This document shows positions 17,382-57,984 of a stretch of 64,000 nucleotides of DNA, piece by piece (the first letter of the stretch is position 1; each line of letters opens with the position of its first letter). The DNA comes from Heterodontus francisci. Taxonomy: Eukaryota. A program made the position numbers and the translations under genes. The stretch is from positions 21,896,529 through 21,960,528 of the forward strand of contig NC_090399.1 in NCBI RefSeq assembly GCF_036365525.1, in the 5' to 3' direction. The notes beneath the pieces were generated by a model. The model searched no databases. It was not told the origin of the DNA and was given only the letters and a program-made list of their open reading frames with translations.

Positions 17382-17508
17382 CTGAGTTCTGAAGAAGGGT
17401 CACTGACCTGAAACGTTAACTCTGCAGATGCTGCCAGACCTGTTGAGTATTTCCAGCATTTCTTGTTTTTATTTCAGATTTCCAGCATCCGCAGTATTTT
17501 GCTTCTAA
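17382..17508 (+). mobile_element. Solo Penelope-like terminal repeat carrying a minimal hammerhead ribozyme (17384-17422)
   Basis: GAGTT-CTGAAGA-A-GGGTC-ACT-GACCT-GAAA-CGTT-AACTC. Flanked by 12-bp TSD ACTAATCAGAAA (17370-17381 and 17509-17520). Same sequence as the ends of the GIY-YIG element at 45686-50543. Confidence 0.85.
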
Positions 17509-17670
17509 ACTAATCAGAAAGGATTGGGTTTGATGTTTAAGACTAGAGGACTAGTTATAGTTCAATGTTTGTAGCCAACATGATATTTTTTATACATTTA
17601 CTGTAAGTATTAGAAATAAGGCATCATCACAGAATGGTCCAATATTAACAAGGTAATAATTATTTTATGA

Positions 17671-17802
17671 TTAGTTGTTCAATATCTGAAGAGGATGTTT
17701 GATATTCTCATCAGTAAGATGTATCTTCCTTCCAATAGTTCCTGTAGATTCAGATGACTTTATCTCACTGTATAACACAGCAGGATTGCTTGTTGATGAA
17801 TT
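17671..17802 (-). CDS. Exon 5: terminal cytoplasmic exon with ITIM (NSSTSNPAVLYSEIK...LQILNN*)
   Basis: Long polypyrimidine acceptor ttttcttttatttggtctcag|, phase 0, 43 codons plus TAA. VLYSEI (17761-17778) fits the ITIM consensus (S/I/V/L)xYxx(I/V/L). Confidence 0.8.
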   Translation of the reverse strand, partial: NSSTSNPAVLYSEIKSSESTGTIGRKIHLTDENIKHPLQILNN

Positions 17803-19939
17803 CTGAGACCAAATAAAAGAAAACACAAATTGGGTGAGCAAATAGTTATTAAAAAATAAGATGAATACATCTAACAACCTTGTCTGTACAAGAGGGGAAC
17901 TATTAACAGGAGAAACTTCCCAGACATTCTGATTTTGTAATTTTCACTCGTCTTTGAAAAATATTATTGCATTTAGTAATTACTTTCATCCAGCAATATA
18001 TTAGCTATACATAACCCTGCATCTAAATGAATAGTTTTAGGATTTTGCTCCATGATCGTGCTTGTATGAATTTGGTCCGTCAGACTTTGGGCATCACAGA
18101 TTACACACACATATGGTCGGCACATTTGCAAGGAATCCATTTTCCACAGGGGCTCCTTTTTCAGATTTGGTCACTTTTGTGCTTTTGCTTTGAAGGTTTT
18201 TTTTAATGTGCTAGGTTGAGATTTTTTGTTTCGATTCTCCTGGTGCCTCCCCCCGTCCCCCACAGTGACTGGGGTTTGTGAGGGCGGTGTGAGGGAGAGG
18301 GTGTGTGGAGCGGATAGAAATTTAAACTTTCAACTTCACTGGAAAGGAAAATTGTTCATGGCGAGACATATAAAAGGCGAATCGTTCAATATCACCTATT
18401 TTACATAATTGGCCAAAGTTAAAATTGCCCCCACTCTCTGGGAAATCCATCCGACCTTTGTTCTAGTTCAACATATAAAAATGGTAGCTGTTGCGATCAT
18501 TGTAAAATGTGATATTTCAAAGTGCAAAGATTAATTTGTGATGCATGATGTACCTGTTAAATAAACTTGTCCTTGAGTATGGTAACTTGATACCTCTTTC
18601 AGCACTTACTTTGCAAAAAGTGACAAGTTGATGCTTATCCTTATTTTGCTGTTTTCTTGTATGAAAGAACCAAATTCTGATTATTTTCTCTACTCCTAAA
18701 ATGGATTCCCTATCTCTTAACCATGTTAGTGCCTCTTCATCACTAACAGAGGGTCAAGGAAGGGGACAGAGCTTTATCAAAAGCAAGTCCTGGCACACTA
18801 TCAATGTCCAGTGTGGACAAAAAGATGACACAAATAACCCATCAAATGAATCCTTCAGTAGAAATCTACAGGGTAGAAATGGTGGTACCATGAAGTGTTA
18901 TACAATCAGCTGCCAGTTATTTGTCCTGCCCAATATTCAGCTCCAGTGAAGTGAATAAAATGGAATATCAGACGGATGGAAAAACAGGCAGCTGATTTGA
19001 CAACATCCACTTAAACCTGTCCTGGCTGTCCTTGATTAACTCACGCATTTCTATACGTTCACTAATTGTATCTAAAACTATGAATTTGCCCACAAGACAT
19101 TAGGCTAGGTGGTTCATAGTGATTGAGTTAATTCTTCTCTTCATTCTTGAACAGAAATGCTACATTTCGCATTCTCAAGTGCCTTGGCACAATTTTCATA
19201 TCTAAGGATATTTGTAAAATTGTGGGCACAGCCCCTGCTATCTCCTCTCTGACTTCCTTCAATAGCCTAGCTTACATTCTGTCAGAACCTGGTGACTTAG
19301 TCACTTTGAGTTCTGCTATTTTTTCCCCAAACCAATCCATTTTCCACAGTTATTTCCATCAGTTGTTCCATATCCTCCTCTACTTCACCTATATTTATAC
19401 TTGCACCATCATTTGTAAAGAATGACATAAAATCTTTATTTAATGCCACTTTGATCCTCCACAACTAGATATTCCTTTCATCCATGGTCTACCCTCTCTT
19501 TAATGATTATTCAATTTGCCTATAAAAGTCCTTCACTAGTCACATGCAGAGATCGAGCACTGCTCACTAGTATCCCCATTGCCAGATTGATTTTCAATAT
19601 TTAAAAAGGCCCGAGGTGCTAGTTATCTTATGGTTGTACAGCCGGGCCATTACTTTATTTTAACTTTTATAAGTCTTCAAACCACAACCTCTGACTCAGA
19701 GGTGACCATGCTACCGACTGAGCCATGACTAACACCTACGTACTCACTGACTTAACATTTACAGTAATAGTGCAAGACTTCAAATTCAATTCTTTTCAAA
19801 GAGGCGACTTAGAGACTGATTAGGAAATCACCCTGTGTGTAATCTTTAATAGAAAACATCAACCTTTAGCATTGTCATGTGGATGTTACAGTTGATATCT
19901 ATATATTATTAAAATCCTCTGTATGCCCACAATTCCTAT

Positions 19940-21022: not shown

Positions 21023-21392
21023 GAACATTCAGAATGGAAATCCTGTATGTCTGTAACAACTTAGGCCAGTTGGCTCTCTAGAGTAAGATTTTGAAATCTT
21101 TTACCCATCTGTCTGGCTATCTTGCATTCAGCAACTGACTGTAGGGAATGCCATGGACAATTCACACATGTCTCAGGAAACTGGACAAAGTATTTGTGCT
21201 TTTATTAAAATATCTCTGAACCATTAAAACTTGATACACATATTTTTTCTGACAAGTGGTGATAAGAGGTGATAAGAGGCGTTAACTTCATGTTGCGCCT
21301 GTAGTCTAAATAAACCTTGTCAGTCCCATTTCTTAGCTCTTCCTGCGTGGAGCGTTAGATGGTTAATTCTTCAGTGTTTAAGTAAAATAAAT

Positions 21393-21803
21393 ACTTAAGT
21401 TCCAGTTGGCATTGAGTTAAGGTTGTCTCTGATTTTAATCTTTATTTCTCGCTTTAACCTATTCTAAAAGTGACTCGGATTTCTCCCAAATTCTCATGTT
21501 CCTTTCTCCTGAATTGAAAATTGTAATTAAAGAGAGAGAGAGATTTTAAAATTAGATTAGTATTGACAATTGCATTGTAAGGTGGAGGCCAGTTTAAACA
21601 GAATGGTTATATTTTTATACTCACATTCTGTAACAAAGTATATTCCATCACTTCAGTGGTCACTCATGTTTTCCTCTCAGTTCGTTTTGAGGTCTGTTGA
21701 TACCTACATGCTGCACATCAGCACCAGGCTTTGAATAAACATAAACCGGAAATAAAGATTAAAATCTGGCATAACCTAACTCCATACCAACTGGAACATA
21801 TGT
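21393..21803. repeat. Imperfect ~55-bp inverted repeat pair (21393-21448 and 21749-21803)
   Basis: GAAATAAAGATTAAAATC..AACCT-AACTC.AT.CCAACTGGAAC occurs on both strands. Confidence 0.8.
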
Positions 21804-32400: not shown

Positions 32401-33200
32401 CTTGCCTGACTCGCAGTCACACCCTCCGGTCCCTGACCATTGACCAACTCTAAAGTTCCACTTAACCTAAGGGATGTGACTGTCTCCTGGGACAAAGTGT
32501 CCAGATAGCTCTTTCCCCTCCCTGATGCCCCGCAATGTCTGCAGCTCGGACTCCAGCTCAACAACTCAGAGCAGAAGTTCCTCGAGCTGCAGCCACTTAA
32601 TGCAGATTTGGTTGTCTGGGATCTCAATACTCTCCACAAACTCCCACATGCTGCATTTACAGTACACCACCTGCCCTGCCACATCTATCTAATCTGGTTC
32701 CTTTATTTGATTAGTTAATACGTTTTTTTTTAATTGGATCAATTATTTTAGTTTTATTAATTAATTGGTTTATCTAGTTTAAGTTACTAATTTAGTAAAG
32801 TAATAGCAAGCTAGTTTCCTTAGAAAAAAAACTGCAAATCTGTAATACCCATCAAACAATCACCTACCTACTTGCTGTCCTGTGACATCACTCCTTGACT
32901 ATTGTTTCAACTTTGAAGTTCTGGCTCCCAAATCTCCACCTTGGCTCCCAGCTCCCACTTTTTCTTTCAGCTCCTGATCTTTTCCATCTCAGCTCTTTGT
33001 CTCAGCTCTTGCTCTTTTCAAACTCTACTCTTGCTCTTTTCAAACTCTACTCTGACTTTCAGCTCCCGCTCTTTTCAATCTCTGCTCTTTTTCTCAGGTC
33101 CTGCTCTTTTCAATATCCATCCTAGCTCTCAGCTTCTGCTCTTTTCAGTCTCCATTCAGGCTGTACAAGCTCTTGACCTTGATCTCGAATATCTCCACCC
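26472..33200 (-). mobile_element. Decayed near-full-length CR1 in intron 2, with nested CR1s at ~27219-28045 (+) and ~28705-29925 (-)
   Basis: 3' tail (ACATAAGAACAT) at 26472, ORF2 fragments, ORF1 fragments at 32056-32684 (RNVVVIG), and a repetitive 5' region at 32940-33150. Confidence 0.8.
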
Positions 33201-33454: not shown

Positions 33455-33664
33455 AAATCCCATCCTATTATTACATGGATAATTCTGAATGATCTGTGGC
33501 CCATAATTTGGTTTATCCACACCTATTGCTCCAACCTGCCTTCTGATTAATGTTTTAGGCGCATCTCATACTTGATCATTTCATCCCTGCTGGGAGGGCA
33601 AGGTTCTCCATTTGATTACGTCAAATGGAACTACAGAAAATTGATCTGTGAGCTAATCCCTTAA

Positions 33665-36186
33665 ACACCAAAGTTATGTTAACATTTTATAAATCACTGG
33701 TCAGGCTTCAGCTGGAATATTGTATCCAATACTAGACACCACAATTTAGGAAGGACATCAAAGTCTTGGAGAGGATGCAGGGGAAATTTGGCAGAGCTGT
33801 ACCAAGGATAAGGGAATCCAGGAATATGGGGAGACTGGAGAAGCTGGGATTGTTCTCAGAACAAAAGGTTATGGGAAGATTTAATCGAGGTGTTCAAAAT
33901 TAGATAGGGTTTTGATAGAGTAAATGGGGAGAATGTCAGGACAACCAGTAACAAAGGACACAGATTAAAACAATAGGTCAGAGAACCAGAGGGAGATGAG
34001 CAGAATGTTTTTATGCAGCGAATTGTTAAGATCTGGAATACACTGATTGGAAGGGTGGAGGAAGCCGATTCAATAGTAACTTTCAAAAGGGAATTGGATG
34101 TATACACGAAAAGGAACCATTTGGAGAACTTTGTGGAAAGAGCAGGGGAATGGGTCTAATTGGATAGCTCTTTCAAAGAACTAGCACAGCCGCCATCAGC
34201 CGAATGGCGTCGTGAAATCCTTCGATTGCGAAATGATTACTTGGTGTCTGTCTTCACTGAGGAAGATACAAGAAATCTCCCAGAATTAGAGATCCACGGG
34301 ATTGGGGAAATGAGGAATTGAAGGAAATTAGTATTAGTAAGAAGACTGTACTGGAGAAATTAATGGGGCTGACGGTTGATAAGTCTCCAGGACCTGATAT
34401 TCTACATCCCAGAGTGTTGAAAGAGGTAGTGGATGCATTGATGATTATCTTCCAAAATTCTACAGATTCTGGAATGGTTCCTGAAGATTGGAAGGTCACA
34501 AATGTCACCCCATTATTTAAGAAGGGAGGGAGAAAGAAAACAGGGACTACAGACCTGTTAGCCTTACACCAGTCCTTGGGAAAATGCTAGAATCTATTCT
34601 AAAGGATGTGATTAATGGACAACATGGATTTATGAATTGGAAATCATATTTGATGAACCTGTTGAAGTTTTTTGAGGTATATACTTACAGAATTGATAAA
34701 GGTGGACATGGTATACTTGGATTTTCAGAAGGCTTTTGATAAAGTCCCCCACAGGAAGTTGGTTGGCAAAATTAAAGCCCTTGGGATAGGAGGTATATAT
34801 TAGCATGGATTAAGGATTTGTTAACAGGCAGAAAGCAGAGAGTAGGAATAAATGGGTCATTCTCACATTGGCAGGCTGTGACTAGAGGGGTACTGCAGGG
34901 ATCAGTGCTTGGGCCCCAGCTGTTCACAATATTTATCAATGATTTGGATGTGGGGACCAAATGTAGTATTTCCAAGTTCGTGATGACACAAAACTAGGTG
35001 GGAATGTGTGTTGTGATGAAGATGCAAAGTGGCTTCAAGGGAATTTGGACAGACTTAGTGAGTGAGCAAGAACGTGGCAGATGGAATATAATATGGAAAA
35101 ATGTGAGGTTATCCACTTTGGTAAGAGGAATAGATGTGCAGAGTATTTCTTAAATGGCAAGAGATTAGAAAGTGTAGATGTACAAAGGGGCCTGGGTGTC
35201 CTTGTCAATAAGTCACTGAAAGCTAACATGTAGGTGCAGCAAGCAATTAGGAAGGCTAATGGTATGTTAGCCTTTATCGTAAGAGGATTTGAGTACAGGA
35301 GTAGTGAAGTCTTGCTTCAATTGTATACATCCTTGGTCCCCTTACCTTAGGAAGGATATTATTGCTATAGAGGGAGTGCAACGAAGGTGCACCAGACTTG
35401 TTCCTGGGAGGACTGTCCTATGAAGAGAGATTGGGGAAACTGGGCCTGTATTCTCTAGAGTTTTGAAGAATGAGAGGTGATCGCATTGAAACCTACAAAA
35501 TACTGAAAGGGATGGACATGGTAGATGCAGCTAAGATGTTTCCCCTGGTTGGGGGGTCTAGAACCAGGGGACATAATTTCAAAATAAGGGGAAAGCCACT
35601 TCGGACAGAGAAATTTCTTTACTCAGAGGTTTGTGAATCTTTGGAATTTTCTATCCCAGAGGGCTGTGAAAGCTCAGCTATTGAATACGTTTAAAGCAGA
35701 GATTGACAGATTTTAGTTTAGTTTAGTTTAGAGATACAACACTGAAACAGGCCCTTCAGCCCACCGAGTCTGTGCCGACCATCAACCACCCATTTATACT
35801 AATCCTACACTAATTCCATATTCCTACCACATCCCCACCTGTCCCTATATTCCCCTACCACCTACCTATACTAGGGGCAATTTATAATGGCCAATTTACC
35901 TACCAACCTGCAAGTCTTTTGGCTTGTGGGAGGAAACCGGAGCACCCGGAGAAAACCCACGCAGACACAGGGAGAACTTGCAAACTCCACACAGGCAGTA
36001 CCCAGAATTGAACCCGGGTCGCTGGAGCTGTTAGGCTGCAATGCTAACCACTGCGCCACTGTGCCGCCCATAAATACAAATGACATCAGGGGATATGAGG
36101 ATAGTGTGGGGGAAAGGCATTGAAGTGGATGATCAACCTTGATCATACTGAATGGTGGGGCAAGTTCCTGCTCCTATGTTCCTATG
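33665..36186 (+). mobile_element. Two adjacent decayed CR1 fragments
   Basis: KSPGPD and WKVTNVTPLFKK motifs; CR1 3' tails. Confidence 0.82.
35712..36069 (-). mobile_element. HE1-type SINE inside a CR1 3' end
   Basis: Full head-to-tail copy; tail reads (TTTAG)n on the plus strand. Confidence 0.9.
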
Positions 36187-37335: not shown

Positions 37336-37556
37336 GATATCCATTACAAATGTTCCCGCCCCATATTCTGGAACACAAAATGCAAAAATCGGAACTACTT
37401 ATGTCAGAAAAGACCAGCTTCGCGCGTTGCAAGCAAATAAATTCCCCATTTCATGTAGACTTATGTAACTGACACCAGTCCAGTTAATATATTATTACTG
37501 GAAATGTTCTTAACCATTGAACAAAACGAATTCACACCGGGGGAGAAAATACATAC

Positions 37557-37931
37557 CCATTCCATACCCGGTGTCGGATTGGACAGTTAACATTAACCTG
37601 GCCATTTCTATTCCTATTGAGTCGGCAATGGATAATTCATAAATCCCGCTGTCATTAAACTGTAAATCTTTCAGCAACAATGAAGCATTTTCAGGAAAAA
37701 GAACAGCCCGATGTTTGTAGCCGTCAGGAACAGACAGGTAGTGGCAGCGTCCAGTGAGGTTGTTGTCTCTCTCCGATATACATCTATATTCCACAATTCT
37801 GGTCCTGTCTCTGATCCATTTGATCCGAAAGTAACCGCCTGAGTTTGAGACTGTGTAAGAGGTGGGTAGGAGCACAGACTGACCAAGGGTTCCATTCACA
37901 CTGTCCTGGTTCACTCTCAGTGTCACAGCGA
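37557..37931 (-). CDS. Exon 2: Ig V-set domain, CD2/SLAM/CEACAM/HEPACAM-like N domain
   Basis: Acceptor ctctacctttag|, donor G|gtatgt, 375 nt, phase 1-1. Motifs VNGTLGQSVLLP, IKW, YKHRAVLFPENASLLLKDLQFNDSGIYEL and LTV are typical of a V-set domain that lacks the canonical B/F cysteines. Confidence 0.92.
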
Positions 37932-38021: not shown

Positions 38022-38349
38022 ATTAGATTAGATTAGAGATACAGCACTGAAACAGGCCCTTCGGCCCACCGAGTCTGTGCCGAACATCAACCACCCATTT
38101 ATACTAATTCTACACTAATCCCATATTCCTACCAAACATCCCCACCTGTCCCTATATTTCCCTACCACCTACCTATACTAGTGACAATTTATAATGGCCA
38201 ATTTACCTATCAACCTGCAAGTCTTTTGGCTTGTGGGAGGAAACCGGTACACCCGGAGAAAACCCACGCAGACACAGGGAGAACTTGCAAACTCCACACA
38301 GGCAGTACCCGGAATCGAACCCGGGTCCCTGGAGCTGTGAGGCTGCGGT
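38022..38349 (-). mobile_element. HE1-type SINE in intron 1 of the IgV gene
   Basis: Near-identical copy; tail reads (GATTA)n on the plus strand. Confidence 0.88.
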
Positions 38350-38958
38350 ATAGAATGGAAATAAATATTCACGGTGTTTTACATATTTCAACACCACCTC
38401 TTGGGAACATTCTGCTCTACAGTTCCCTGTAACTGAGCTGGACTCCAGTACCAGTCCATAACAGTTCATTGTGATATTTCACTGATATTTGTGGAAGGAC
38501 TAACTCGCATGGAATTTTTACATCTTTCCAACACAGTAAAACACTAATTGGTGAAAACACTGCTGTTGCGAGAATGTCGAACAGGGTCTAAACGGAGAAG
38601 CAGAGGCAGTCCTGCCCGCTGGAATTATTCTGAACAGTTTTGATTCGGCAAATTTTGATTTAATTTAGAATCACAGAACAGAAGGAGGTTATTCGGCCCA
38701 TCGTTCCTCTTTAAAAGAGATATCAGAATTGTCCCGCTCACCCGCTCTTTCACTGTAGAACTGCAAATATTTCCTTTTCTCAAACTCGGCAATTGCTAAA
38801 AACAAAAAAAAACAGTTCTCACTTGGCAAGAACCGCTACTAATGGACTTGTAAATATATGTTATTACATGGTAGTTTGGACTGCGCATTATACCGCCGGA
38901 TAATTCCTCCACCTCTTTCACAATCCAAATCTTATATATTAATTGTAGCAACTCTTAC

Positions 38959-40854: not shown

Positions 40855-41192
40855 TATTTATTTATTTAGAGATACAGCACTGAAACAGGTCCTTCGGCCC
40901 ACCGAGTCTGTGCCGACCAACAACCACCCATTTATACTAATCCTACATTAATCCCATATTCCCTACCACATCCCTACCATTCTCCCACCACCTACCTACA
41001 CGAGGGGCAATTTACAATGGCCAATTTACCTATCAACCTGCAAGTCTTTGGCTGTGGGAGGAAACTGGAGCACCCGGTGCAAACCCACGTGGTCACAGAG
41101 AAAACTTGCAAACTCCGCACAGGCAGTACCCAGAACTGGGCCCAGGTCGCTGGAGCTTTGAGGCTGCGGTGCTAACCACTGCACCACTGTGT
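40855..41192 (-). mobile_element. HE1-type SINE
   Basis: Family match. Confidence 0.88.
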
Positions 41193-41284: not shown

Positions 41285-41840
41285 AATGAGGAGAACACCC
41301 ATTCTCTTCTTCAAACTAGTGCCATAGGGTTTTTTAAATCCACCTGAAATGTCAGTCAGGGTCACGATTTAACATCTCATCTGAAGGCCGGCACCTCCAA
41401 CAATTTAGCACTCCCTTAGTATTGCATTGGAATGTTAGCTAGATTTTGGGGCGGCACAGTGGCGCAGTGGTTAGCACCACAGCCTCACAGCTCCAGCGAC
41501 CCGGGTTCAATTCTGGGTGCTGCCTGTGTGGAGTTTGCAAGTTCTCCCTGTGTCTGCGTGGGTTTCCTCCCACATGCCAAAGACTTGCAGGTTGATAGGT
41601 AAATTGGCCATTATAAATTGCCCCTAGTATAGGTAGGTGGTAGGGAAATATAGGGACAGGTGGAGATGTGGTAGGAATATGGAATTAATGTAGGATTAGT
41701 ACAAATGGGTGGTTGATGGTTGGCACAGACTCGGTGGGCCGAAGGGCCTGTTTCAGTGCTGTATCTCTAAACTGAAAAAAACAACTAAAAACTCTGGAGA
41801 GGGACTTGAATCTACAAACCTTCTGACTCAGAGGTGACAG
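41285..41840 (-). mobile_element. Old Deu-domain SINE (SacSINE1/AmnSINE1-like), split by HE1; other fragments at ~16085-16285 and ~19680-19740
   Basis: Reverse complement contains GCAATACTAAGGGAGTGCT..GGAGGTGCC..TTCAGATGAGATGTTAAA..CAGGTGGA..TGGCACTA..GAAGAAGAG, matching my recollection of the Deu core. Confidence 0.65.
41448..41785 (+). mobile_element. HE1-type SINE inserted in an older SINE
   Basis: GGGGCGGCACAGTGGCGCAGTGG head; family match. Confidence 0.9.
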
Positions 41841-42635: not shown

Positions 42636-42738
42636 AAATAAAAACAAGAAATGCTGGAAATACTCAGCAGGTCTGGCAGCATCTGTGGAGAGAGAAGCAG
42701 AATTAATGTTTCAGGTCAGTGACCCTTCATCAGAACTC
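42636..42738 (-). mobile_element. Solo Penelope-like terminal repeat with hammerhead motif
   Basis: Reverse complement reads GAGTTCTGATGAAGGGTCACTGACCTGAAACATTAATTCTGC...GTTTTTATTT. No clear TSD. Confidence 0.8.
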
Positions 42739-45685
42739 AAATAATGGACTTCCCAGTCATCCCATGTGCTTGGTTGGGCTGCATAACGTCTTAATAAATT
42801 TACATGTCAAGGTCCTTCACTATACTCACATCCACAGTAAATTATTCCAATTACTTATTTCACATTCCTTCACCACAGTTCAACTTTATTCTGTGTGGGG
42901 TATAGTTTTGGTCGGGTTCTCTCAATCTGCCACCATAACGTCTCTTCTAATTCTGTCATAGAACCCTTGTGGAAGTTACGGGGTGTATGTTTATTTATTG
43001 ATGGGTTAATTACTTGATACATGGCAAAAGTAGTGCATGATTCTGATTTTTCATTGAGGTGGCCTCTTCTTAGTTTGTAATGAAATATCCCTTCTGTATT
43101 TTTGGCCCAGTTGCTTTAGTTACAGTGTGGGAGACAGCGTTGGTCACTGGCTACCGTGGAGGACAGGAAATCTGCTTATTTGTGGTTAACATGCACTCAA
43201 GCTGCTTTCTCATTTATCTTAAACAGTTCCAAAGCTTAGAATAGAAATAGAAATAGAAACACTTGCTCATTGTATCATGTATTAAAAAACTGCAATGCTG
43301 TGATAAAATACAGCTAAATAATTTATTTTTCAGAGATACAAATGGACTGAAAAACCTAGACACTTTTATGCAAATGCTTCAAATGAAGGCAACATTAGGA
43401 CAGGTGACCAAGTGTTTGGTCAAAGAGGAAGCTTGTAAGCAGCGTTATAAAGGCAGAGAAAGAGGTCGAGAGGCGGAGGTTTGATGAGGGGATTCCAGAG
43501 CTTAGGGCCTAGATGGCTGAAGGCATATCCATCAATGGTTGGGTTAAGAAAGTGAAATACAGATTAGCTACTCATGCATTTCATTGATCTGAGCAACTCT
43601 GGCATATCCTTGAGTATCCTGGAGGGAGAGTTAGTTAACCTCACAGCAAGACAAACCTTTGCCAAAGTTCCTGACTCATATTATTTTTCAGAATATAAAT
43701 TCAGGGGCCTCTGAGTACTGCTTGTCGGCACTGAGTTCTGCTTGAGTGTACAGAGTGTCAAGCAGGGAGTTTGGTGAGTGAGGGAGTTTGTTGAATAGGG
43801 GAACTTTAAATTAATTAAGAAAATTAATTTAATTAACACAATGTAAATGCAGGACGGGTGATGTGTCGTAGCTGCTGTATTTGGGAGCTTCTGGATGCCA
43901 TAGCAATCCATGGCAACCACGTCTGTAGTAACTGTCTGCGACTTGAGGAACTTCAGCTCAGAGTAGATCAGCTGGAGGCCGAGCTGCAGATATTGCAATG
44001 CATCAGGGAGGGGGAAAGTTACCTGGACACTTGGTTCCAGAAGGCAGTCACACCCCTTAGGATAGGGTCAATGGTCAAGGACAGGAGGGTGTGACTGCGA
44101 ATCAGGCAGGTAAGGGGATCAAGAAGGTGGGAGTGGAGTTGCCTCAGTCCTTGCAATTGAGCAACAAGTTTGATGCTTTTGCAGCTTTTGCACAAGAGTG
44201 AAGGCTGTAGTTTGGATGAACAGACTGGCCATGGCACCATGGTACAGGAAGCTGTTCAAGCGGGGGGAGCAAAAAGAAATGTAGTGGTAGTAGGGGACAG
44301 TATAGAGAGGGAGATAGACACTGTTCTCTGCAGCAAAGAGCAAGAGTCCAGAGGCTGTGTTGCCTGCCCAGTGCCAGAGATTGGGACATCTGTTCAGGGC
44401 TGGAGAGGAACTTACATTGGGAGGGGGTCGGATCCAGTCGTTGTAGTCTATCTATGTACCAACAGCATAGACGGGACAAGATAAAAGGTTCTGCATAGCC
44501 AGTATGAGGAGCGAGGCAGAACCTCAAAGATAATAATCTCTGGATTATTACCTGAGCCAAGTGCAAATTGGAGTCGGGCAAATAAGAATAGAGAAATGAA
44601 TGCGTGGCTCACAGACTGGTGTGGTAGAAGTGGGTTCCAGGTCATGGGGCACTGGCACCAATATTGGGGAACGTGGGGACTGTACCATTGGGACAGTATG
44701 CACCTGAACCGTGCTGGGAGCAGTGTTCTAGCGAGCTGCATAAGTAGGGAAGATGAGAGGGTTTTAAACTAAATAGTGGAGGCAAGGGATCAAATTTGGG
44801 AAGATGTGGTAAATCAAAGAGAGACAAGGCAAGAGAGAAAGGTATTAATATGGGAAAAGACAAACTGTGGCAGGAAGGGACAGTGAGTACAAATCTAAGA
44901 GTTAATCAGCAGATAAGGCTAGAGGATACAAAATTAATAAAAGGACAAAACTAAAGGCTCTGTATCTGAATGCACATTGCATTTGAATCAAAACAGATGA
45001 ACTGAAAGGGAAAACAGAAATAAGTACAATCTGATAGCCATTACAGAGACATGGCTGCAGGATGACATAGATTGGGCCCTGAATATTGAAGGATTCATAA
45101 CATTTCGGAAGGACAGGAAGCTAGGAAAAGGGGGAAGGGTGACTCTGTTAATTAATGATGCTATTAGCACAATAGAGAGGCATGACCTAAGTTCAGGAAA
45201 TCAGGATTTAGAAGAGGTTTGGGTAGAGATGAGAAATGATAAAGGCAAGAAGTCACTTATGGGAGTGGTTTACAGGTGCCCTAACAATAACCACATGGTA
45301 GGATGGGGGACAAAGGAAGAAGCAATGGGAGCTTGTCAGGAAGGTCTGGCGATAATCATGGGGGGTTTTAATCTACATATAGACTGGAAAAATCAGATGG
45401 GCAAAGGTAGCCTAGATGAGGAGTTCATAGAATGTTTTCTGGATAGTTTCTTAGAAGAGCATGTTCTGAAGCCAACCCGAGAGCAGGCTATACTAGACCT
45501 GGTATTGTGCAATGAGATAGGATTAATTGATAACCTTATAACAAATGCACCCCGAGGCAGCAGCGATCATAGTATGATTGAATATTACATTCCATTTGAG
45601 AGAGAGGGGAGAGGTCTAAAACTGGTATTTTAAACTTAAATAAGGGTAATTATGAGGACATGAAAGCAGAGCTAGCTAAAGTGAA

Positions 45686-48600
45686 ATAAAAACAAGAAAT
45701 GCTGGAAATACACAGCAGTTCTGGCAGCATCTGTGGAGAGAGAAGCAGAGTTAACATTTCAGGTCAGTGACCCTTCTTCAGAACTGGCAGATACTAGAAA
45801 TGTAAAAGGTTTTAGGCAAGTAAAGTGGGGATGGGGCAAAAGATAACAAAAGAGGTGTTGATAGGACAAGGTCACAGAATAACTGACCAGAAGGTCATGG
45901 AGCAAAGGGAAACACTTTGTGAATGGTGTGCTGAAAGACAAAGCATTTGTACAGATAGGGTGTTAATGGACTGAAAGCTGAACAGCCACAAGCACAAACA
46001 TTGAAAGAAATTGGGTAGGCACAGTAGAAACAAACTGAACCAAAATAAAATAAACACAAAAATGAAAAAAAAACCTGAAAATAAAAGTAAAATGGGGGGC
46101 CCATCATGCTCTGAAATTATTGAACTCAATGTTCAGTCCGGCAGGCTGTAGCGTGCCTAATCGGTAAACGAGATGCTGTTCCACGAGCTTGCATTGATGT
46201 TCACTGGAACACTGCAGCAATCCCAGGAATGTGAGCATGAGAGCAGGGGTATGTTTTGAAATGGCAAGCAACCAGAAGCTTGGAGTCATGCTTTCGGACT
46301 GAGCGGAGGTGTTCCGCAAAGTGGTCACCCAGTCTACGTTTGGTCTTCCCAATATAGAGGAGACCACATTGTGAGCAGCGAATACAGTATACTACATTGA
46401 AAGAAGTACAAGTAAATCGCTGCTTCACCTGAAAGGAGTGTTTGGGGCCTGGATAGTGAGGAGCTAAATAGTCAAGTATTACACCTCCTGCGATTGCAGG
46501 GGAAGGTGCCGTGGGAAGGGGATAAGGTGGTGGGGGTAATGGAGGAGTGGACTAGGGTGTCACAGAGGGAACGATCCCTTCAGAATGCTGACAGGGGAGG
46601 GGAGGGGAAGATGCTTTTGGTAGTGGCATCATGCTTGAGGTGGCGGAAATGGCAGAGGATGATCCTTTGGATATGGAGGCTGATGGGGTGGAAAGTGAAG
46701 ACCAAGGGGAACCCTATCATGGTTCTGGGAGGGAGGGAAAGGGGTGAGGGTAGAGGTGCAGGAAATGGGCCGGACACGGTTGAGGGCCCTGTCAACCACA
46801 GTGGGGGGGAATCCTCGGTTGAAGAAAAAGGAAGACATATCAGAAGCACTGTCCCGGAAGGTAGCATCATCAGAGCAGATGCGTCGGATACGGAGAAACT
46901 GGGAGAATGGAATGGAGTCCTTACAGGAAGCAGGGTGTGAAGAAGTGTAGTCGAGGTAGCTGGGAGTTGGAGGGCTTATAATGAATATAAGCAGACAGTC
47001 TATTCCCAGAGATGGAGACAGAGAAGTCGAGGAAGGGAAGTGTCAGAGATGGACCATGTAAAGGTGAGAGAAGGGTGGAAATTAGAAGCAAAGTTGATAA
47101 AGTTTTCCAGTTCCAGGGTGGGAGCAGGAAACGGCACCAATACAGTCATCAATGTACCAGAAAAAGAGTTGGGGGAGGGGGCCTGAGTAGGACTGGAACA
47201 AGGAATGTTCAACATATGGTTTACTAAAGAAGTTGAAGTGCTTGTCAAGAGGAAGAAGAAGGCTTATGTTAGGATGAGACGTGAAGGTTCAGTTAGGGCG
47301 CTTGAGAGCTACAAGCTAGCCAGGAAGGATCTAAAGGGAGAGCTAAGAAGAGCAAGGAGAGGACACGAGAAGTCATTGGTGGATCGGATCAGGGAAAACC
47401 CTAAGGCTTTCTATAGGTATATCAGGAATAAAAGAATGACTAGAGTTAGATTAGGGCCAATCAAGATTGTAGTGGGAAGTTGTGTGTGGAATCAGAGGAG
47501 ATAGGGGAAGTGTTAAATGAATATTTTGCGTCAGTATTTACAGTAGAGAAAGAAAATGTTGTTGAGAATACTGAGATTCAGGCTACGAGGCTAGATGGGA
47601 TTGAGGTTCACAAGGAGGAGGTGTTAGCAATTTTGGAAGGTGTGAAAATAGATAAGTCCCCTGGGCCAGATGGGATTTATCCTAGGATTCTCTGGGAAGC
47701 TAGGGAGGAGATTGCAGAGCCTTTGTCCTTGATCTTTATGTCGTCATTGTCGACAGGAATAGTGCCGGAAGACTGGAGGATTGCAAATGTTGTCCCCTTG
47801 TTCAAGAAGGGGAGTAGAGACAGCCCTGGTAATTATAGACCTGTGAGCCTTACTTCGGTTGTGGGTAAAATGTTGGAAAAGGTTATAAGAGACAGGATTT
47901 ATAATCATCTTGAAAAGAATAAGTTCATTAGCGATAGTCAGCACGGTTTTGTGACGGGTAGGTCGTGCCTCACAAACCTTATTGAGTTTTTCGAGAAGGT
48001 GACCAAACAGGTGGATGAGGGTAAAGCAGTGGATGTGGTGTATATGGATTTCAGTAAGGCGTTTGATAAGGTTCCCCACGGTAGGCTATTGCAGAAAATA
48101 CGGAAGTATGGGGTTGAAGGCGATTTAGAGCTTTGGATCAGAAATTGGCTAGCTGAAAGAAGACAGAGGGTGGTGGTTGATGGCAAATGTTCATCCTGGA
48201 GTTTAGTTACTAGTGGTGTACCGCAAGGATCTGTTTTGGGGCCACTGCTGTTTGTCATTTTTATAAATGACCTGGAAGAGGGTGTAGAAGGGTGGGTTAG
48301 TAAATTTGCAGATGACACTAAGGTCGGTGGAGTTGTGGATAGTGCCGAAGGATGTTGTAGGGTACAGAGAGACATAGATAGGCTGCAGAGCTGGGCTGAG
48401 AGATGGCAAATGGAGTTTAATGCGGAAAAGTGTGAGGTGATTCACTTTGGAAGGAGTAACAGGAATGCAGAGTACTGGGCTAATGGGAAGATTCTTGGTA
48501 GTGTAGATGAACAGAGAGATCTTGGTGTCCAGGTGCATAAATCCCTGAAGGTTGCTAACCAGGTTAATAGGGCTGTTAAGAAGGCATATGGTGTGTTAGC

Positions 48601-50543
48601 TTTTATTAGTAGGGGGGTCGAGTTTCGGATCCACGAGGTCATGCTGCAGCTGTACAAAACTCTGGTGAGACCGCACCTGGAGTATTGCGTGCAGTTCTGG
48701 TCACCGCATTATAGGAAGGATGTGGAAGCTATGGAAAGGGTGCAGAGGAGATTTACTAGGATGTTGCCTGGTATGGAGGGAAGGTCTTACGAGAAAAGGC
48801 TGAGGGACTTGAGGTTGTTTTCGTTGGAGAGAAGGAGGAGGAGAGGTGACTTAATAGAGACATATAAGATAATCAGAGGGTTAGATAGGGTGGATAGTGA
48901 GCGTCTTTTTCCTCGGATGGTGATGGCAAACACGAGGGGACATAGCATCAAGTTGAGGGGTGATAGATATAGGACAGATGTGAGAGGTAGTTTCTTTACT
49001 CAGAGAGTAGTAAGGGTGTGGAACGCCCTGCCTGCAGCAGTAGTAGATTCGCCAACTTTAAGGGCATTTAAGTGGTCATTGGATAGACACATGGATGAAA
49101 ATGGAATAGTGTAGGTCAGATGGTTTCACAGGTCGGCGCAACATCGAGGGTCGAAGGGCCTGTACTGCGCTGTAATGTTCTAATTTCTAATTTCAAAAAG
49201 ACAGGCATAACTAGGACCCATGCGGGTACCCATAGCGACACCTTTTACTTGAAGGAAGTGAGTGGAGTTGAAGGAGAAGTTGTTCAATGTGAGAACAAGT
49301 TCAGCCAGGCGGAGGAGGGTGATGGTTGTTGGGGACTGGTTGGGCCTCTGTTCAAGGAAGAAGCGGAGAGCCCTCAAACCTTCCTGGGGGGGGATGGAGA
49401 TGTCGAGAGATTAGACGTCCATAGTGAAGGGGAAATGGTTGGGGCCAGGAGACTGGAAATTGTCAAAATGACATAGGGCGTCAGAAGAGTCACAGATGTA
49501 GGTGGGAAGAGACAGGACCAGCGGATAAAAGATAGAGTCAAGATAGGAAGAAATAAGTTCAGTGGGGCAGGTACAGGCTGAAACAATGGGTCTGCCGTGA
49601 CAGTCCTGAATGTGGATTTTGGGAAGGAGATAGAAGCGGGCTGTCCGGCGTGTGGGCCTATGAAGTTAGAAGCTGTAGAGGGAAGATCTCCAGAGGAGAT
49701 GAGGTCAGTGACAGTCCTGTGGACAGTCTCTTGATGTTCGGAGGTGGGGTCAAGGTCCAGGGGGAAGTAACAAGAAGTGCTTGAGAGTTGGCGCTGCTTA
49801 CAATATGGTCTCCTCTGCATTGGGGAGACCAAACGCAGACTGGGTGACCGCTTTGAGGAACATCTCCACTCTGCCCAACAGCATGACCCCGAGCTTCCGG
49901 TTGTTGGCCATTTCAACACTCCCCTTTGGTGTCATGCTCACATCTCTGTCCTGGGATTGCTGCAGTGTTCCAGTGAACATCAATGTAAGCTCGAAGAACA
50001 GCATCTCATTTACCGATTAGGCACGCTACAGCCTGCCGGACTGAATATTGAGTTCAATAATTTAGGACCATGCCGGGCCCCCCATTTTACTTTTATTTTT
50101 AGTTCTTTTCTCCTTTTTTTTTTGTGTTTATTTTATTTTAAGTTTGTTCAGTTTGTTTCTACTGTGCCTACCCACTGGTTTTCTTTTCATGTTTGTGTAT
50201 GTGGCTGTTCAGTTTTCAGTCCATTAACACCCTATCTGTATTAATGCTTTACCTTTCAGCAAACCATTAACATATTGTTTGCCTTTGCTCCATGACCTTC
50301 TGGTCAGTTATTCTGTGACCTTGTTCTATCAACACCTTCTCTTTTGACATCTCTTGCCCCACCTCTGCTTTGCTTGCTTAAAACCTTTTACATTTCTAAT
50401 ATCTGCCAGTTCTGATGAAGGGTCTCTGACCTGAAGCGTTAACTCTGCTTCTCTCTCCACAGATGCTGCCAGACCTGCTGAGTATTTCCAGCATTTCTTG
50501 TTTTTATTTCAGATTTCCAGCATCTGCAGTATTTTGCTTTTGT
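45686..50543. mobile_element. Penelope-like retroelement insertion (RT + GIY-YIG endonuclease) with inverted arms, interrupted by a young CR1
   Basis: Minus arm 45686-47217 plus 49194-~49780 carries RT motifs GVAMGTRMGPSYACLF and GIY-YIG NVVYCIRCSQCGLLYIGKTKRRLGDHFAEH. Plus arm ~49790-50543 repeats the GIY-YIG C-terminus and terminal repeat. 15-bp TSD GCTAGCTAAAGTGAA (45671-45685 and 50544-50558). Confidence 0.88.
47218..49193 (+). mobile_element. Young 5'-truncated CR1 LINE with uninterrupted RT ORF (47480-49114, 544 aa)
   Basis: [42 protein letters not shown] and FADD motifs; TTCTAA-repeat tail. It interrupts the Penelope-like RT. Confidence 0.95.
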
Positions 50544-51100
50544 GCTAGCTAAAGTGAACTGGAAAAGTAGGTTAAGGGATAGGTCAACAGAGATGTAGTG
50601 GCAGACATTTAAGGGGATATTTCAGAATACACAGAATAGATACATTCCAGCGGGAAAGAAAAATTCCAAGAGGAGGACCCACCATCCGTGGTTAACTAAA
50701 AAGTTAAAGATAGTATCAAACTTTAAGAAAAAGCATATCATTGCGCAAAGATGGGTGGCAGGTCAGAGGATTGGACAGAATATAAAAAACAGCAAAGAAT
50801 GACTGAAAGAATAAAAGAATTACATTGGCTATTTTCCAATTTAATGGAACCTTCCCTGAATCTGGGGAATTTTGGAAAATTAAAACCAACACATCAACTA
50901 TCTCACTAGCCACTTCTTTGAAGACTTTAGGATGAAATCCATCAGGACCCAGGGACTTGTCAGCCCGCAGCTCCAAAATTTGCTCAGTACCACAACTCTG
51001 ATTGTAATTTTCTTGAGTTCCTCTCTCCCTTCCATTTCCTGGTTTACAAATATTTCCGAGATGTTACTTGTATCCCCGATAGTGAAGGCAGATGCAAAAT

Positions 51101-51412
51101 GGGTGGCGCAGTGGTTCGCACTGCAGCCTCACAGCTCCAGGGACCCGGGTTCAATTCTGGGTACTGCCTGTGTGGAGTTTGCAAGTTCTCCCTGTGTCTG
51201 TGTGGGTTTTTGCCGGGTGCTCCGGTTTCCTCCCACCTCCAAAGACTTGCAGGTGATAGGTAAATTGGCCATTGTAAATTGCCCCTAGTGTAGGTAGGTG
51301 GTAGGGAATATGGGATTACTGTAGGGTTAGTATAAATGGGTGGTTGTTGGTCGGCACAGACTCGGTGGGCCGAATGGCCTGTTTTAGTGCTGTATCTCTA
51401 ATAACAAAAAAA
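51101..51412 (+). mobile_element. HE1-type SINE
   Basis: Family match. Confidence 0.88.
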
Positions 51413-52789
51413 AATACCTGTTCAATTCATCTGCCATCCCCTTATTTTCCATGTATAATATAATGTGGGAAAATGTGAAATTGTTCATTTTGGCAGGAAG
51501 AATGAAAAAGTATATTATTTAACTGGTGAGAGATTGCAGAGCTCTGAGATGCAGAGGGATCTGGGTGTCCTTGTGCATGAATCACAAAAGGTTAGTATGC
51601 AGGTACAGCACGTAATTAGGAAAGCTAATAGAATGTTATCGTTTATTGTGAAGAAAATTGAATACAAAAGTAGGGAGGTTATGCTTCAGCTACACAGGGC
51701 ACTGGTGAGACCACATCTGGAGTACTGTGTACAGTATTGGTCTCCTTATTTAAGGAAGGATGTAAATGTTTTGAAAGCATTTCAGAGAAGGTTTACTAGC
51801 CTATTACCTGCAATGGCCGGGTTGTCTTATGAGGAAGGATTGGACAGGCTATGCTTGCATCTGCTGGAGTTTAGAAGAGTAAGGGGCAACTTGATTGAAA
51901 CATATAAGTTCCTGAGGAGTCTTGACAGGGTGGATGTGCAATGGATGTTTCCACTTGTGGGAGAATCTAGAACTCGGGATCACAGTTTAAAACTAAGGAG
52001 ATGCCCATTTAAGACAGAGATGCGGAGAAATTTTTTCTCTCAGAGGGTTGTGAGTCTTTGGAACTCTCTTTCTCAAAAGGCGGTGGAAGCAGCCTTTGAA
52101 TATCTTTAAGGTGGAGGTAGATAGATTCTTGATAAGCAAGGGGGTGAAAAGTCATCGGGTAGGCAGGAAAGTGGAGTTGATGTTACAATTAAATCAGCCA
52201 ATATCTTGTTGAATGGCGGAGCAGACTGGAGAGGCCGAGTGGCGTACTCCTAATTCTTATGTTCGTATGTATGTATGCTCGTAAGAGAACCTTGCTTAAG
52301 CGTTTGGTGATATTGACTATTAGTCTAGTGCACAGCCTGGACATCTAGACCATTACACAGTGTCTGGTACAATATAAGCTGCTCTGCACCATGTTAACGA
52401 CAGAAATCTGTTATACAGGCAATGAGCAAATAATACGAGCTTTAGGAGAATTGCTGCTGAAACATGGTGCGGGTGGGAGGGGGCGTGGGGGGAGGGGGCA
52501 GAGTTGGGTGGAGGGTGTACTTTTGCCAAAGAGTGAAAATGGATGCTAAATGGGTATGGTGATAATGAGAAACGCCTGTTTGAAAGTGAGGACTTTTCAC
52601 ATGACTTTCAGGCTAATTGATGATTATCATGATTTAAATGTGCTTGCAGGTGCTGAAACCAACAAGGGTAGGTTTAGTACTCGTGCTGGTTACTCTCAAT
52701 GTTCCTGGAGCTGTATATATAACCTGCACTCACCCACTTCCACTGAAGGTGTGAAGTGCTCTGGCTAGGAGAGAAAGCCAATGTGGAAG

Positions 52790-53850: not shown

Positions 53851-54744
53851 TGTCACAGGAGAGCAGGTAGGATTTTGATTGGTGAGTATTGAGGGTTCCT
53901 TTTCTAAACTAGGGCAGTGGTTTGAACTAGGACCAGGAAACTTTAAAGTACTGCATTAAATTTATAGATTAACTAATTAAAATAATTAATATAGTTACAT
54001 GTAATCATTAAATAATCAGACAAAAGGAGAAGCCTGGAAGCAGAGCAGCACAGCTTGTAAAACTGAATCAAATGGGAAGGGAAAATCAATAATATCGCAA
54101 AGTGACATCACAGATCAGGGAGTCACGTGGGGTGAGTATACTGGTAAGATTTTAATGTAAATTAATCGACTATAAAGTGACTGGACCAATTAATTAGTAT
54201 CAAAACTAAAGGCAAATTGGTATTTTATCATATAATTGCAATCAGAGTTCAATTCACTGATCAAATCTAGGGGATAAAGTTAAATTAAATAACAAGGGAT
54301 AATAACAGTAAGAGTTCTAAATTTTTCAAAAAAATTAAAATCTGAGATATATAAATAATAAGTTAGGTAAAATATTTAACTGCCCATAAAATAGGGTGAC
54401 ATCAGCACAAAGGAAACAGCTGATTGGTGAGTAGCTGGTGAGTCTTCAGTTAAGTCTTAAGTGTATTTCAAAGTCAGTTAATAGTCTAATAAATAGAGGC
54501 ATGGTTGGACATCTCAGTCCCATGGTATGCACATTTTGTTCTATGTGGGAGCTCTAGGACACTTCTTGTGACCTGGACAACCACATGTTCAGGAAGTGTC
54601 GTCAGCTGGAGCAGATCAAGCTCTGGGTTTCGGAGCTTGAACAGCAGATGGCATCACTGCAGTGTATCAACAAGGTTGAGAGTTTCATAGATATCACATT
54701 TCTGGATGTGGTCAGCCCACGACTTTAGGGTGTGCAGGCAGAGA

Positions 54745-56178
54745 GTCACGGAGCAAAGGCAAACAATATGTTAATGGTGTGTTGAAAGACAAAGCATTAG
54801 TACAGATTAGGTGTTAATACACTGAATATTGAACAGCAGCAAGTGCAAACCTGAAAAAAACAGTGGGTAAGCAAACTGAACAAACTAAGATGAAATGAAA
54901 TAAATGCAAAAAAAAGATTGTAAAAAGTGTAAAAAAGAATGTTTAAAAAAAGGAAGAAAAAACAACTAAAAATGAAAGTAAAATGGGGGGCTGTCATGCT
55001 CTGAAATTATTGAACTCAATGTTCAGTCCGGCAGGCTGCAGTGTGACTAATCGGTAAATGAGATGCTGTTCCTCGAGCTTGCATTGATGTTCACTGGAAC
55101 ACTCCAGCAATCCCAGGACAGAGATGTGAGCATGAGAGCAGGGGGGAGTGTTGAAATGGCAAGCAACTGGAAGCTCAGGGTCCTGCTTGCGGACTGAGCG
55201 GAGATGTTCCGCAAAGCGGTCACCCAGTCTGCGCTTGGTCTCCCCAATGTAGAGGAGACCACACTGTGAGCAGCGAATACAGTATACTACATTGAAAGAA
55301 GTACAAGTAAATCGCTGCTTCACCTGAAAGGAGTGTTTGGGGCCTGGGATAGTGAGGAGAGAGGAGGTAAATGGCGATTGCAGGGGAAGGTGCCATGGGA
55401 TGGGGACGAGGTGGTGGGGGTAATGGAGGAGTGGACCAGGGTGTCGCGGAGGGAACGATCCCTTCGGAATGCTGACAGGGGAAGGGAGGGGAAGATGCGA
55501 CTGGTAGTGGCATCACGCTGGAGGTGGCGGAAATGGCGGAGGATGATCCTTTGGATATGGAGGCTGGTGGGGTGAAAAGTGAGGACAAGGGGAACCCTGT
55601 CACGGTTCTGGGAGGGAGGGGAAGGGGTGAGGGTAGAGGTGCGGGGAATGGGTCGGACACGGTTGAGGGCCCTGTCAACCACAGTGGGGGGAAATCCTCG
55701 GTTGAGGAAAAAGGAGGTCATATCAGAAGCACCGTCATGGAAGGTAGCATCATCAGAGCAGATGCATCGGAGACGGAGAAACTGGGAGAATGGAATGGAG
55801 TCCTTACAAGAGGTAGGGTGTGAAGAAGTGTAGTCGATATAGCTGTGGGAGTCGGTGGGCTTATAATGGATATTAGTAGACAACCTATCCCCAGAGATGG
55901 AGACAGAGAAGTCAAGGAAGGGAAGGGAAGTGTCAGAGATGGACCATGTAAAGGTGAGAGAAGGGTGGAAATTGGAAGCAAAGTTGATAACGTTTTCCAG
56001 TTCGGGGCGGGAGCAGGAAACGGCACCGATACAGTTATCAATGTACCAGAAAAAGAGTTGGGGGAGGGGGCCTGAGTAGGACTGGAACAAAGAATGCTCG
56101 ACATATCCCACAAAAAGACAGGCATAACTAGGACCCATGCGGGTACCCATAGCGACACCTTTTACTTGAAGGAAGTGA
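54745..56178 (-). mobile_element. Penelope-like retroelement fragment (RT C-terminal part + GIY-YIG)
   Basis: ORFs 55320-56150 (MGTRMGPSYACLF, WYIDNC, LPFLD, YKPTDSHSY) and 54994-55323 (VYCIRC..LYIGETKRRLGDRFAEH). It sits inside a CR1 ORF1. Confidence 0.88.
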
Positions 56179-57850
56179 TATATTGCCTCCCTGGTGTCAG
56201 GATCAAGGATGTCACTGAGCAGCTGCAGAACACTCTGAGAGGGGATGGTGAACAGCCAGTGGTTCTAGTCCATATCAGTACCAATAACATAGATTAAAAA
56301 AAAGGGATGAGGTCCTGCAGATTGATTTTCGGGAGCTAGGAAAGAAACTAGCAAGCAGGACCACAGAGGTAGTAATCTCCAGATTACTTTCAGTGACACG
56401 TGCTAATGGGTATAGGAATAGGAGGACAGAACAGATAAATGCATGGCTGGAGAGATGGTGCAGGAAGAAGGGTTTTAGTTTCCTGGGACGTTGGGACCAG
56501 TTCAGGGGAGATGGGATCTGTGCAGGCCGGATGGGTTGCACCTAAATAGAGCCGAATTCAATGTCCTTGTGGGACAGTTTGCCAAAGCTATTGGGGAGGG
56601 GTAAACTAATGTGGCAGCGGGATGGGAACCAGGAGGAAACATTAGAGAGGAAAAACAAGGTGCACAAAGAATTATGAGAGACAGTTGGCACTGGAGTGGG
56701 ATATAGTAGTGTGTTAGGTGGGGTCAGAGTAAGAGGGAATGTAATTAGGTCTCAATTAGGTTTACAGTGCATGTAAGTGAACGCACGGAGTGTGGTACAT
56801 CAGGTTGGTGAGCTGCAGGCACGGGTAGCCACATGGGAGTATGATGTTGTGCTGATAATAGAGAAGTGACTCAAAAAGGGAAGGACTGAATACAAAATGT
56901 TCCTGGATACAAGTTGTTCAAGAAGGATAGGGAAGAAAAGAAAGGAGAAGGGGTGGGAGTATTGATTAAGATAATGTTACACTGTTGGAAAGAGACAATG
57001 TCCCAGAGGAGTCAAAGATAGAATCTATTTGATTACAGCTAAGAAATAACAGAGGTACCATTACACTATTGGGTGTAGTCTATAAGCCTCCAACTTGTGG
57101 GAAATATCTAGAGAAACAAATTTGCAAGGAAATTACAGAGAGGTGCAAAAACTGTAGAGTAGTCATAATGGGAGACTTTAATTATCCTAATATAGACTGG
57201 GATAGTAATAGAGTAAAGGGCAGAGAGGGGGGAAGAGTTTCTGAAGTGTGTTCAGGAGGATTTTCTACATCAGTATGTTTGCAGTTAAGACACTGGATAG
57301 GCGAAAAATTGATTAAGAGGAAGTATTAGAAAGGCTGGCTGTAGTTAAAGTTGATAAGTCATCAGGACCGGATGATAAGCATTGAGGATACTGAGGGAAG
57401 GAAGGGTGGAAATTGCAGAGGACTGGCTAGTACCATCCAATCCTTCTTAGATACAGGGATGGTGCCAGAAAACTGGAGCATTGCAAATGTTAAACCCTTG
57501 TTCAAAAACAGGGTGTAAGGATAAACCCAGCAACTGCAGACCAGTCAATTTAACCTCAGTTGTAGAGAAGCATTTAGAGATGTTTATCTGGGACAACATT
57601 AGTCACTTGGACAAATGTGGATTTATTAAGGAAAGCCAGCATGGATTTGTTATGGGCAAATCGTGTTTAACTAATTTGATTGAGTTTTTTTCGATGAAGT
57701 AATATAGAAAGTTGATGAGGTTAATGCAGTTGATAAAGTGCCTTATAATAGGCTTGTTGGCAAAGTTGAAGCCCATGGAATAAAAGGGACAGTAGCAGCA
57801 TGGATACAAAGTTGGCTGAGTGACAGGAAACAGAGTATTGATGAATGGTT

Positions 57851-57984
57851 CCGATGAAGGGTCACTGACCCGAAACGTTAACTCTGCTTCTCTTTCCACA
57901 GATGCTGCCAGACCTGCTGAGTGGTTCCAGCATTTCTTGTCTTTATTTCAGATTTCCAGCATCCGCAGTGTTTTGCTTTTATTA
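57851..57984 (+). mobile_element. Solo Penelope-like terminal repeat with hammerhead motif, inserted in a CR1
   Basis: CCGATGAAGGGTCACTGACCCGAAACGTTAACTC... with 15-bp TSD TATTGATGAATGGTT (57836-57850 and 57985-57999). Confidence 0.87.

Follow-up and report, generated by a model that had tools for sequence, protein, structure and literature searches.

Five minimal hammerhead ribozyme (min-HHR) motifs lie within a 64,000-nucleotide stretch of the genome of the horn shark Heterodontus francisci (contig NC_090399.1, positions 21,896,529 to 21,960,528 of the forward strand; hereafter the window, numbered from its first letter). We consider it likely that these motifs, copies A to E, are dead genomic min-HHRs from the pseudo-long terminal repeat (pLTR) of a Neptune-type Penelope-like element (PLE) of cartilaginous fishes, one that by analogy with its class would cleave as a dimer. 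The five motifs represent four insertion events: A, B and E are solo insertions, and C and D mark the opposite ends of a single composite PLE insertion (Table 1). Cleavage did not produce these copies, which were made from uncleaved templates and then decayed neutrally, mainly at CpG.

Table 1. Hammerhead copies, solo insertions and Penelope-like remnants in the window (HHR, hammerhead ribozyme; RT, reverse transcriptase; UTR, untranslated region; LINE, long interspersed nuclear element; ORF, open reading frame)
Feature	Position	Strand	Remarks
min-HHR copy A	17385-17421	+	intact core; sole strict descriptor match
Copy A, helix I	17385-17388 with 17418-17421	+	
Copy A, CUGANGA box	17389-17395	+	
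Copy A, helix II	17397-17409	+	
Copy A, GAAA	17410-17413	+	
Copy A, palindrome	17413-17416	+	ACGT
Copy A, predicted cut	between 17417 and 17418	+	
min-HHR copy B	42701-42737	-	ACAT in palindrome
min-HHR copy C	45749-45785	-	ATGT in palindrome
min-HHR copy D	50408-50444	+	A15.1>G and loop II change
min-HHR copy E	57847-57883	+	U4>C; G10.1-C11.1
Solo insertion A	17382-17508	+	3-nt inverted junction piece, HHR, downstream region with 12-nt internal deletion, long 3' end with tail
Solo A target duplication	17370-17381 and 17509-17520		12 bp
Solo insertion B	42636-42737	-	102 bp; HHR; short 3' end without tail
Solo insertion E	57847-57984	+	in CR1 ORF2 remnant; HHR; long 3' end with tail
Solo E target duplication	57836-57850 and 57985-57999		15 bp; overlaps first four motif letters
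Composite target duplication, left copy	45671-45685	+	13-15 bp, in older CR1 remnant
Composite, HHR copy C with short 3' end	45684-45785	-	left end of composite PLE insertion
Composite, PLE 3' UTR (~320 nt), GIY-YIG endonuclease, CX4Cxx[C] linker, thumb, part of RT	45786-47217	-	frameshifts and stops; from tblastn and linker translation
Younger CR1-type LINE interrupting PLE RT	47218-49193	+	554-aa open frame 47450-49114; Pfam RVT_1 E 9.8e-37
Composite, upstream part of same PLE RT remnant	49194-49790	-	upper boundary approximate
Composite, inverted PLE 3' segment: GIY-YIG end, 3' UTR, HHR copy D, long 3' end	49792-50543	+	right end of composite
Composite target duplication, right copy	50544-50558	+	13-15 bp
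Third PLE remnant F, same family	54739-56177	-	RT part, thumb, GIY-YIG, part of 3' UTR; without HHR end

Both strands of the window were scanned with a descriptor built after the published min-HHR consensus (helix I of at least 3 bp, CUGANGA, an optional unpaired base, helix II of 4-8 bp, GAAA, a palindromic pair, U and H), and first-order Markov simulations of the window served as background. The strict descriptor matched once, at copy A, and in 0 of 60 simulated windows; with at most one deviation allowed it gave five matches, exactly copies A to E, against 2 in 40 simulated windows. Because the five motifs are copies of one repeat, they amount to one evolutionary observation rather than five. 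By sequence, each of the five motifs is genuine and agrees feature by feature with the minimal type I hammerhead described for PLEs. An initial annotation of this DNA had proposed that class and located the five motifs with their strands and boxes, describing the copy at 17384 as intact and the others as substituted, two of them in a CpG-like manner, and on re-reading all of this was borne out.

In the standard hammerhead numbering, the CUGANGA and GAAA boxes together with U16.1 and H17 are exact in A, B and C, with one change each in D and E. Helix II has 5 bp in every copy, is opened by G10.1 and follows a single unpaired base after A9; its 10.1-11.1 pair is G-U in four copies and G-C in E, and loop II is 3 nt long. 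Helix I has 4 bp in 5/5 copies. The palindrome 15.2-16.2, which carries no helix III loop, is CG in A, D and E and has decayed in B and C, where the two sequences represent CpG decay on opposite strands (the observed/expected CpG ratio of the window is 0.30). A blastn search of the window found neither a sixth copy of the motif nor its downstream region without the core.

The link to Penelope, which the initial annotation had assumed, comes from C and D, each of which lies downstream of a PLE ORF remnant, ~320 nt from its GIY-YIG end and in sense to the ORF. A 15-nt word is common to their outer flanks (words of at least 15 occurred in 1 of 5000 random zone pairs), so that a single insertion into an older CR1 element is bounded by C on one side and D on the other; the earlier count thus holds for motifs but not for separate insertions. 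When P0001, a shark PLE homologue, was aligned by tblastn, its residues 1-76 ended at 49195 and residue 79 resumed at 47216, which indicates one PLE RT split by a younger CR1-type LINE. The young LINE is therefore nested within the PLE, itself within older CR1. We take the LINE remnants to be CR1; the analysis itself showed RVT_1 and endonuclease domains. The alignment of C with D has differences at 69 of 591 bases, so the composite insertion is old. Among all copies two 3' ends occur, a short one (B, C) and one ~31-33 nt longer, the addition being the tail (A, D, E). Reverse transcription began at either of two T-rich sites, ~65 and ~96 nt past the motif, and the target duplications measure 12-15 bp.

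Upstream of and at helix I of copy D, the segment 50378-50414 (+) holds TTAAAA at about -30 and CCAGTTC, which resembles the initiator consensus. The same segment has an AG after a pyrimidine-rich tract, a possible splice acceptor. All three are consensus matches only, and D has a branch-like CTAAT that C lacks.

Searching the window with 11 PLE-type proteins (tblastn) marked three places only: 46092-47237 with 49195-49533 (-), 49735-50088 (+) and 54982-56321 (-). The frame at 55323-56177 (-) had 506 relatives among 1068 candidates, some of them carrying RVT_1 and GIY-YIG domains, and its best named relatives are shark and ray gene models with 60-68% identity. Remnant F scored 22.0 bits against Pfam GIY-YIG (cut-off 22.6; E 2e-4), and the CCHH motif of the endonuclease (EN) is visible in the remnant translation as CxxC and two His. 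Pfam RVT_1 gave no match on the PLE fragments themselves. The layout of EN+ PLEs, RT followed by a C-terminal GIY-YIG domain, is present as broken remnants. The linker joining RT to EN reads CX4Cxx-stop in C, is deleted in F and is an intact CX4CxxC in P0001. A CX2-5CxxC linker marks Neptune and Nematis (PMC8557442), and in vertebrates one survey found Neptune and Poseidon only (bioRxiv 10.64898/2026.07.22.740005). The PLE is likely Neptune-type, an assignment drawn from one linker motif and not from a tree. As a side observation, 49194-49261 and 56111-56178 are identical at 68/68 bases, and the two PLE remnants that hold them are ~86% alike elsewhere; chance, a conserved RT motif or gene conversion may account for the identity.

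PLE sequence is absent upstream of A, B and E, which from helix I to the 3' end measure 124, 102 and 138 bp, and B is identical to D over 66/66 downstream bases. The target duplication of solo A is matched by shared words of at least 12 in 4 of 5000 random zone pairs; that of solo B is uncertain, either 6 bp exact or ~13 bp with a 2-nt indel. All three solos start within a few bases of the 5' strand of helix I. At this junction A shows 3 nt of the element's sequence in inverted form beside a 6-nt target match, and B and E have 3-4 nt of microhomology with the target. None of the three begins at the predicted cut and each keeps the whole core, so they were copied from uncleaved RNA.

The same junctions bear on helix I, which had been described as (G)AGTT/AACT(C). 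Four base pairs of this helix stand, and the fifth, G-C, does not: the PLE-embedded copies C and D both read CCAGTT, so the element's helix I has 4 bp and the additional pair is a junction product. The extra G in A is part of its 3-nt inverted junction piece and that in B is most simply target-derived; the GGTT of copy E is host CR1 sequence belonging to its target duplication. A reverse-transcribed cap as the source of the extra G in A and B was unsupported, since A has an inverted copy of the element's CAG and B can be target. We also rejected B and C (same strand, 3.05 kb apart) as two pLTRs of one element, as the interval has no PLE coding match and holds CR1-type sequence, and D and E as flanking one element, as E carries a target duplication of its own and the PLE remnant separating the two motifs runs on the other strand. 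The PLE segments of the window, where the 5' part of the element is missing, gave no support for solos made from RNA spliced at the AG of helix I: the 3' UTR has no matching donor, and two donor patterns in four of the segments matched coding regions only.

Through ribozyme and tail, copy E holds an open frame of 45 codons (57850-57984, +). In the horn-shark peroxidase gene model P0123 an E-type frame, 91% identical and beginning in translation at that same boundary of the motif, lies close to the N terminus. This frame may be an exonised repeat or an annotation artefact, and its junction may be a splice junction. When the E open-frame peptide was used to look for further copies, one named match was found among 41 longer candidates and none among proteins of similar length; three further matches were set aside.

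What would such a motif do in an active element? As A15.1-C-G-U16.1 cannot close on itself, a dimer model is sterically required. In the tandem RNA of an active element (pLTR-ORF-pLTR), helices I and II would form inside each motif; with no room for an intramolecular helix III, two motifs would pair their ACGU palindromes into a double hammerhead, which, by the behaviour of its class, would cut after GUU. Since this 4-bp palindrome helix is weak and meets competing pairings, cutting would be slow and would probably need the element's own protein. By analogy, we read it best as a slow dimer ribozyme, probably assisted by protein, in active element RNA; what the window itself documents is the anatomy and the uncleaved templates.

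When the 37-nt motifs are folded by prediction, every copy forms helix II, with a lowest pair probability of 0.94-0.98, and the open-core fold is the minimum free energy (MFE) structure for A and C; B, D and E favour an extended hairpin. The MFE structure of copy A consists of helix I and helix II with an open core and is not unusually stable (z -0.65). By nearest-neighbour energies, the ACGU self-duplex is worth -1.7 and the competing AACGUU -3.5 kcal/mol. For two A motifs, a calculation using nearest-neighbour terms only and an artificial linker gave -7.1 kcal/mol for the double hammerhead, -12.8 for two open monomers and -19.4 for an inactive strand-swapped dimer. The modelled dimer is thus thermodynamically poor, which is consistent with the low published activity (PMC4209133). 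Copy B (ACAU) is the full complement of C (AUGU) at helix III, though it cannot self-pair; this complementarity is probably a chance by-product of CpG decay on opposite strands.

Several results weigh against our interpretation. Cleavage of the shark motif would follow by analogy from its class, and the Neptune assignment from its single linker. Within the window there is no tandem (head-to-tail) pLTR-ORF-pLTR or motif dimer. Rfam gave no hammerhead family at E≤10, either for the whole window or for 17330-17530, so that a covariance-model check came out negative; canonical Rfam hammerhead models expect helix III and a longer helix I. In longer sequence context the pair probability of helix I falls to 0.00-0.20 in 4/5 copies, the other being A at 0.63-0.78, where the junction G and the deletion help, and C loses helix II when folded in its embedded context. 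A check for core conservation and covariation gave no support either. All 45 cells pair and 0 of 9 pairs changed on both sides (five copies; the shuffle control had no power); the three one-sided changes are transitions to G-U, as decay alone would give, and one is host target sequence. Substitutions number 2/55 in the core and 8/318 downstream (Fisher p=0.65), in a test that has little power with five neutrally decaying copies. The CpG palindrome has 2 changes in 10 positions. As a weak positive, N7 is A in A and C and T in B, D and E, and any differences at the remaining 11 core positions are singletons. The pattern is what neutral decay after insertion gives, and speaks neither for nor against selection on the source elements.

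Three other explanations deserve weighing against a dimer-cleaving ribozyme. The motif could be a hammerhead by descent that serves mainly as a protein-binding or folding signal, or as a promoter or 5'-end element, with negligible cleavage in vivo. We regard this as less likely, though several observations speak for it: the uncleaved motif is whole in all three solos and in both embedded copies, and a start at the cut site is seen in none. In the reconstituted Anolis PLE, insertion did not need cleavage, HHR mutants of Poseidon left insertion unaffected and RNA-seq showed no reads that started or stopped at the cut site (PMC11167929); 8/9 Xenopus retrozyme dimers did not cleave (bioRxiv 10.64898/2026.07.22.740005), and non-cleavage roles were left open by the authors of the 2014 study (PMC4209133). 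However, the same Anolis HHR did cleave in vitro once protein, and only if protein, was added, with C3/G8 rescue (PMC11167929), and the Schistosoma mansoni min-HHR, inactive as a monomer, cleaved weakly as dimers and trimers (PMC4209133). The shark copies themselves vary at the free N7, with other core changes as singletons, a pattern expected of a catalytic core under selection. What the hammerhead does for PLEs is described as an open question (PMC8557442).

The solos might instead belong to a self-propagating, non-autonomous family derived from the pLTR, SINE-like (short interspersed nuclear element) or a retrozyme monomer, and not be direct by-products of the PLE. Their common 5' boundary, their small size (102-138 bp) and their own target duplications would suit such a family, as would the E-type variant that begins at the same boundary in P0123 and the argument that animal retrozymes are pLTR derivatives (bioRxiv 10.64898/2026.07.22.740005). 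Yet diagnostic changes separating the solos from the embedded copies are absent (B equals D, as above), both PLE 3' ends occur among the solos, these are not tandem, no internal promoter was identified in them, and the P0123 boundary may reflect splicing; on balance we find this explanation rather improbable. That the hammerhead match is mere coincidence in a repeat end is very improbable indeed. For it one can cite the lack of an Rfam match and of covariation, the z of -0.65 and the single evolutionary observation behind five copies, but the strict descriptor found nothing in 60 simulations and the motif's place, in sense within the pLTR, is precisely the one it has in PLEs.

The closest published counterparts are the metazoan PLE min-HHRs (Cervera and De la Pena 2014, PMC4209133). 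They share the core boxes, the unpaired base before a 5-bp helix II, the 4-bp helix I, the palindromic loopless 15.2-16.2, the GUU triplet, G10.1, a U-rich upstream region and the pLTR location, as well as many single copies and opposite-strand HHR pairs at 5'-truncated elements. By our own count, 15 of the 56 rows in that paper's Fig. S3 have GAAA followed by C-G-U-U. The shark copies differ in taxon, cartilaginous fish occupying none of those rows, and in having G10.1-U11.1 in four of five copies where the published pair is usually G-C (G-U occurs in some rows), together with a 3-nt loop II. In D. virilis an intron ends at the AG inside helix I (PMC4209133). PAc, the Poseidon element of Anolis carolinensis (Frangieh et al. 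2024, PMC11167929), likewise has an HHR in its pLTR, two RT start sites to which the PLE tail has been traced, an optional tail of 30-40 bp and copies of unprocessed RNA; it belongs to the Penelope/Poseidon clade, unlike the shark element with its Neptune-type linker, and its ORF starts in the HHR. In T-variant shark copies a stop comes three codons after the core-box AUG.

Penelope of Adineta vaga (Arkhipova et al. 2013, PMC3846280) shares the inverted pLTR, a target duplication enclosing the entire insertion and a 31-bp tail that one end may carry, but its solo pLTRs are without target duplications, whereas at least 2/3 of the shark solos have them. Animal non-LTR retrozymes (PMC7229834; bioRxiv 10.64898/2026.07.22.740005) are also short non-coding units, each with a type I HHR, and related to pLTRs. 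They form tandem arrays, typically of canonical HHRs, whereas the shark copies are dispersed, single and minimal, and the window holds no head-to-tail copies. A literature search, with repeat databases outside its scope, found the shark family not described, nor any solos whose 5' end is fixed at the ribozyme; one survey scanned one chondrichthyan genome for HHR tandem repeats and may include this family (bioRxiv 10.64898/2026.07.22.740005).

The surroundings are rich in other repeats, and self-comparison masks 31030 of the 64000 bases. Young SINE-sized repeats of a family with copies up to ~96% identical lie at 3666-4011, 16567-16844, 35718-36063, 38023-38370 and 40856-41191 (+) and at 41432-41780 and 51103-51413 (-). 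A different LINE-like 3' end, which we assume is possibly RTE-type, occurs at 9208-10191 (+) and 59935-60291 (-), 90-93% alike and with a C-terminal Cys/His motif, and a degenerate pyrimidine-rich tandem array with 13-35-nt spacing occupies 32957-33164. For host-gene mapping, 83 of 172 non-repeat minus-strand frames were scanned and two had a Pfam match, one a piece of LINE endonuclease and the other an immunoglobulin V-set exon at approximately 37555-37930 (-) with plausible splice sites (Pfam V-set E 4e-10). The scanned frames held no other exon of the V-set gene, and no solved relative was found. If the first exon of that gene lies beyond 45.8 kb, B and C would be in sense within one intron.

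The ribozyme class has been known since 2014, and what the window adds is a cartilaginous-fish, probably Neptune-type family; five motifs in 64 kb suggest that it is very abundant. We see the constant 5' boundary shared by the solos (n=3) as a lead worth following. Tentatively, the solos could be run-off cDNAs of a short template: the RNA would start at the first bases of helix I, whether by a transcription start, given the initiator-like CCAGTTC at this place, or by processing, and reverse transcription would start ~100-135 nt downstream in the 5' pLTR and run to the end of the RNA, inserting a ribozyme-plus-tail cassette. If this is true, it would account for the large excess of single min-HHRs over full PLEs in animal genomes, and the 5' ends of the solos would be a genomic map of PLE transcript starts.

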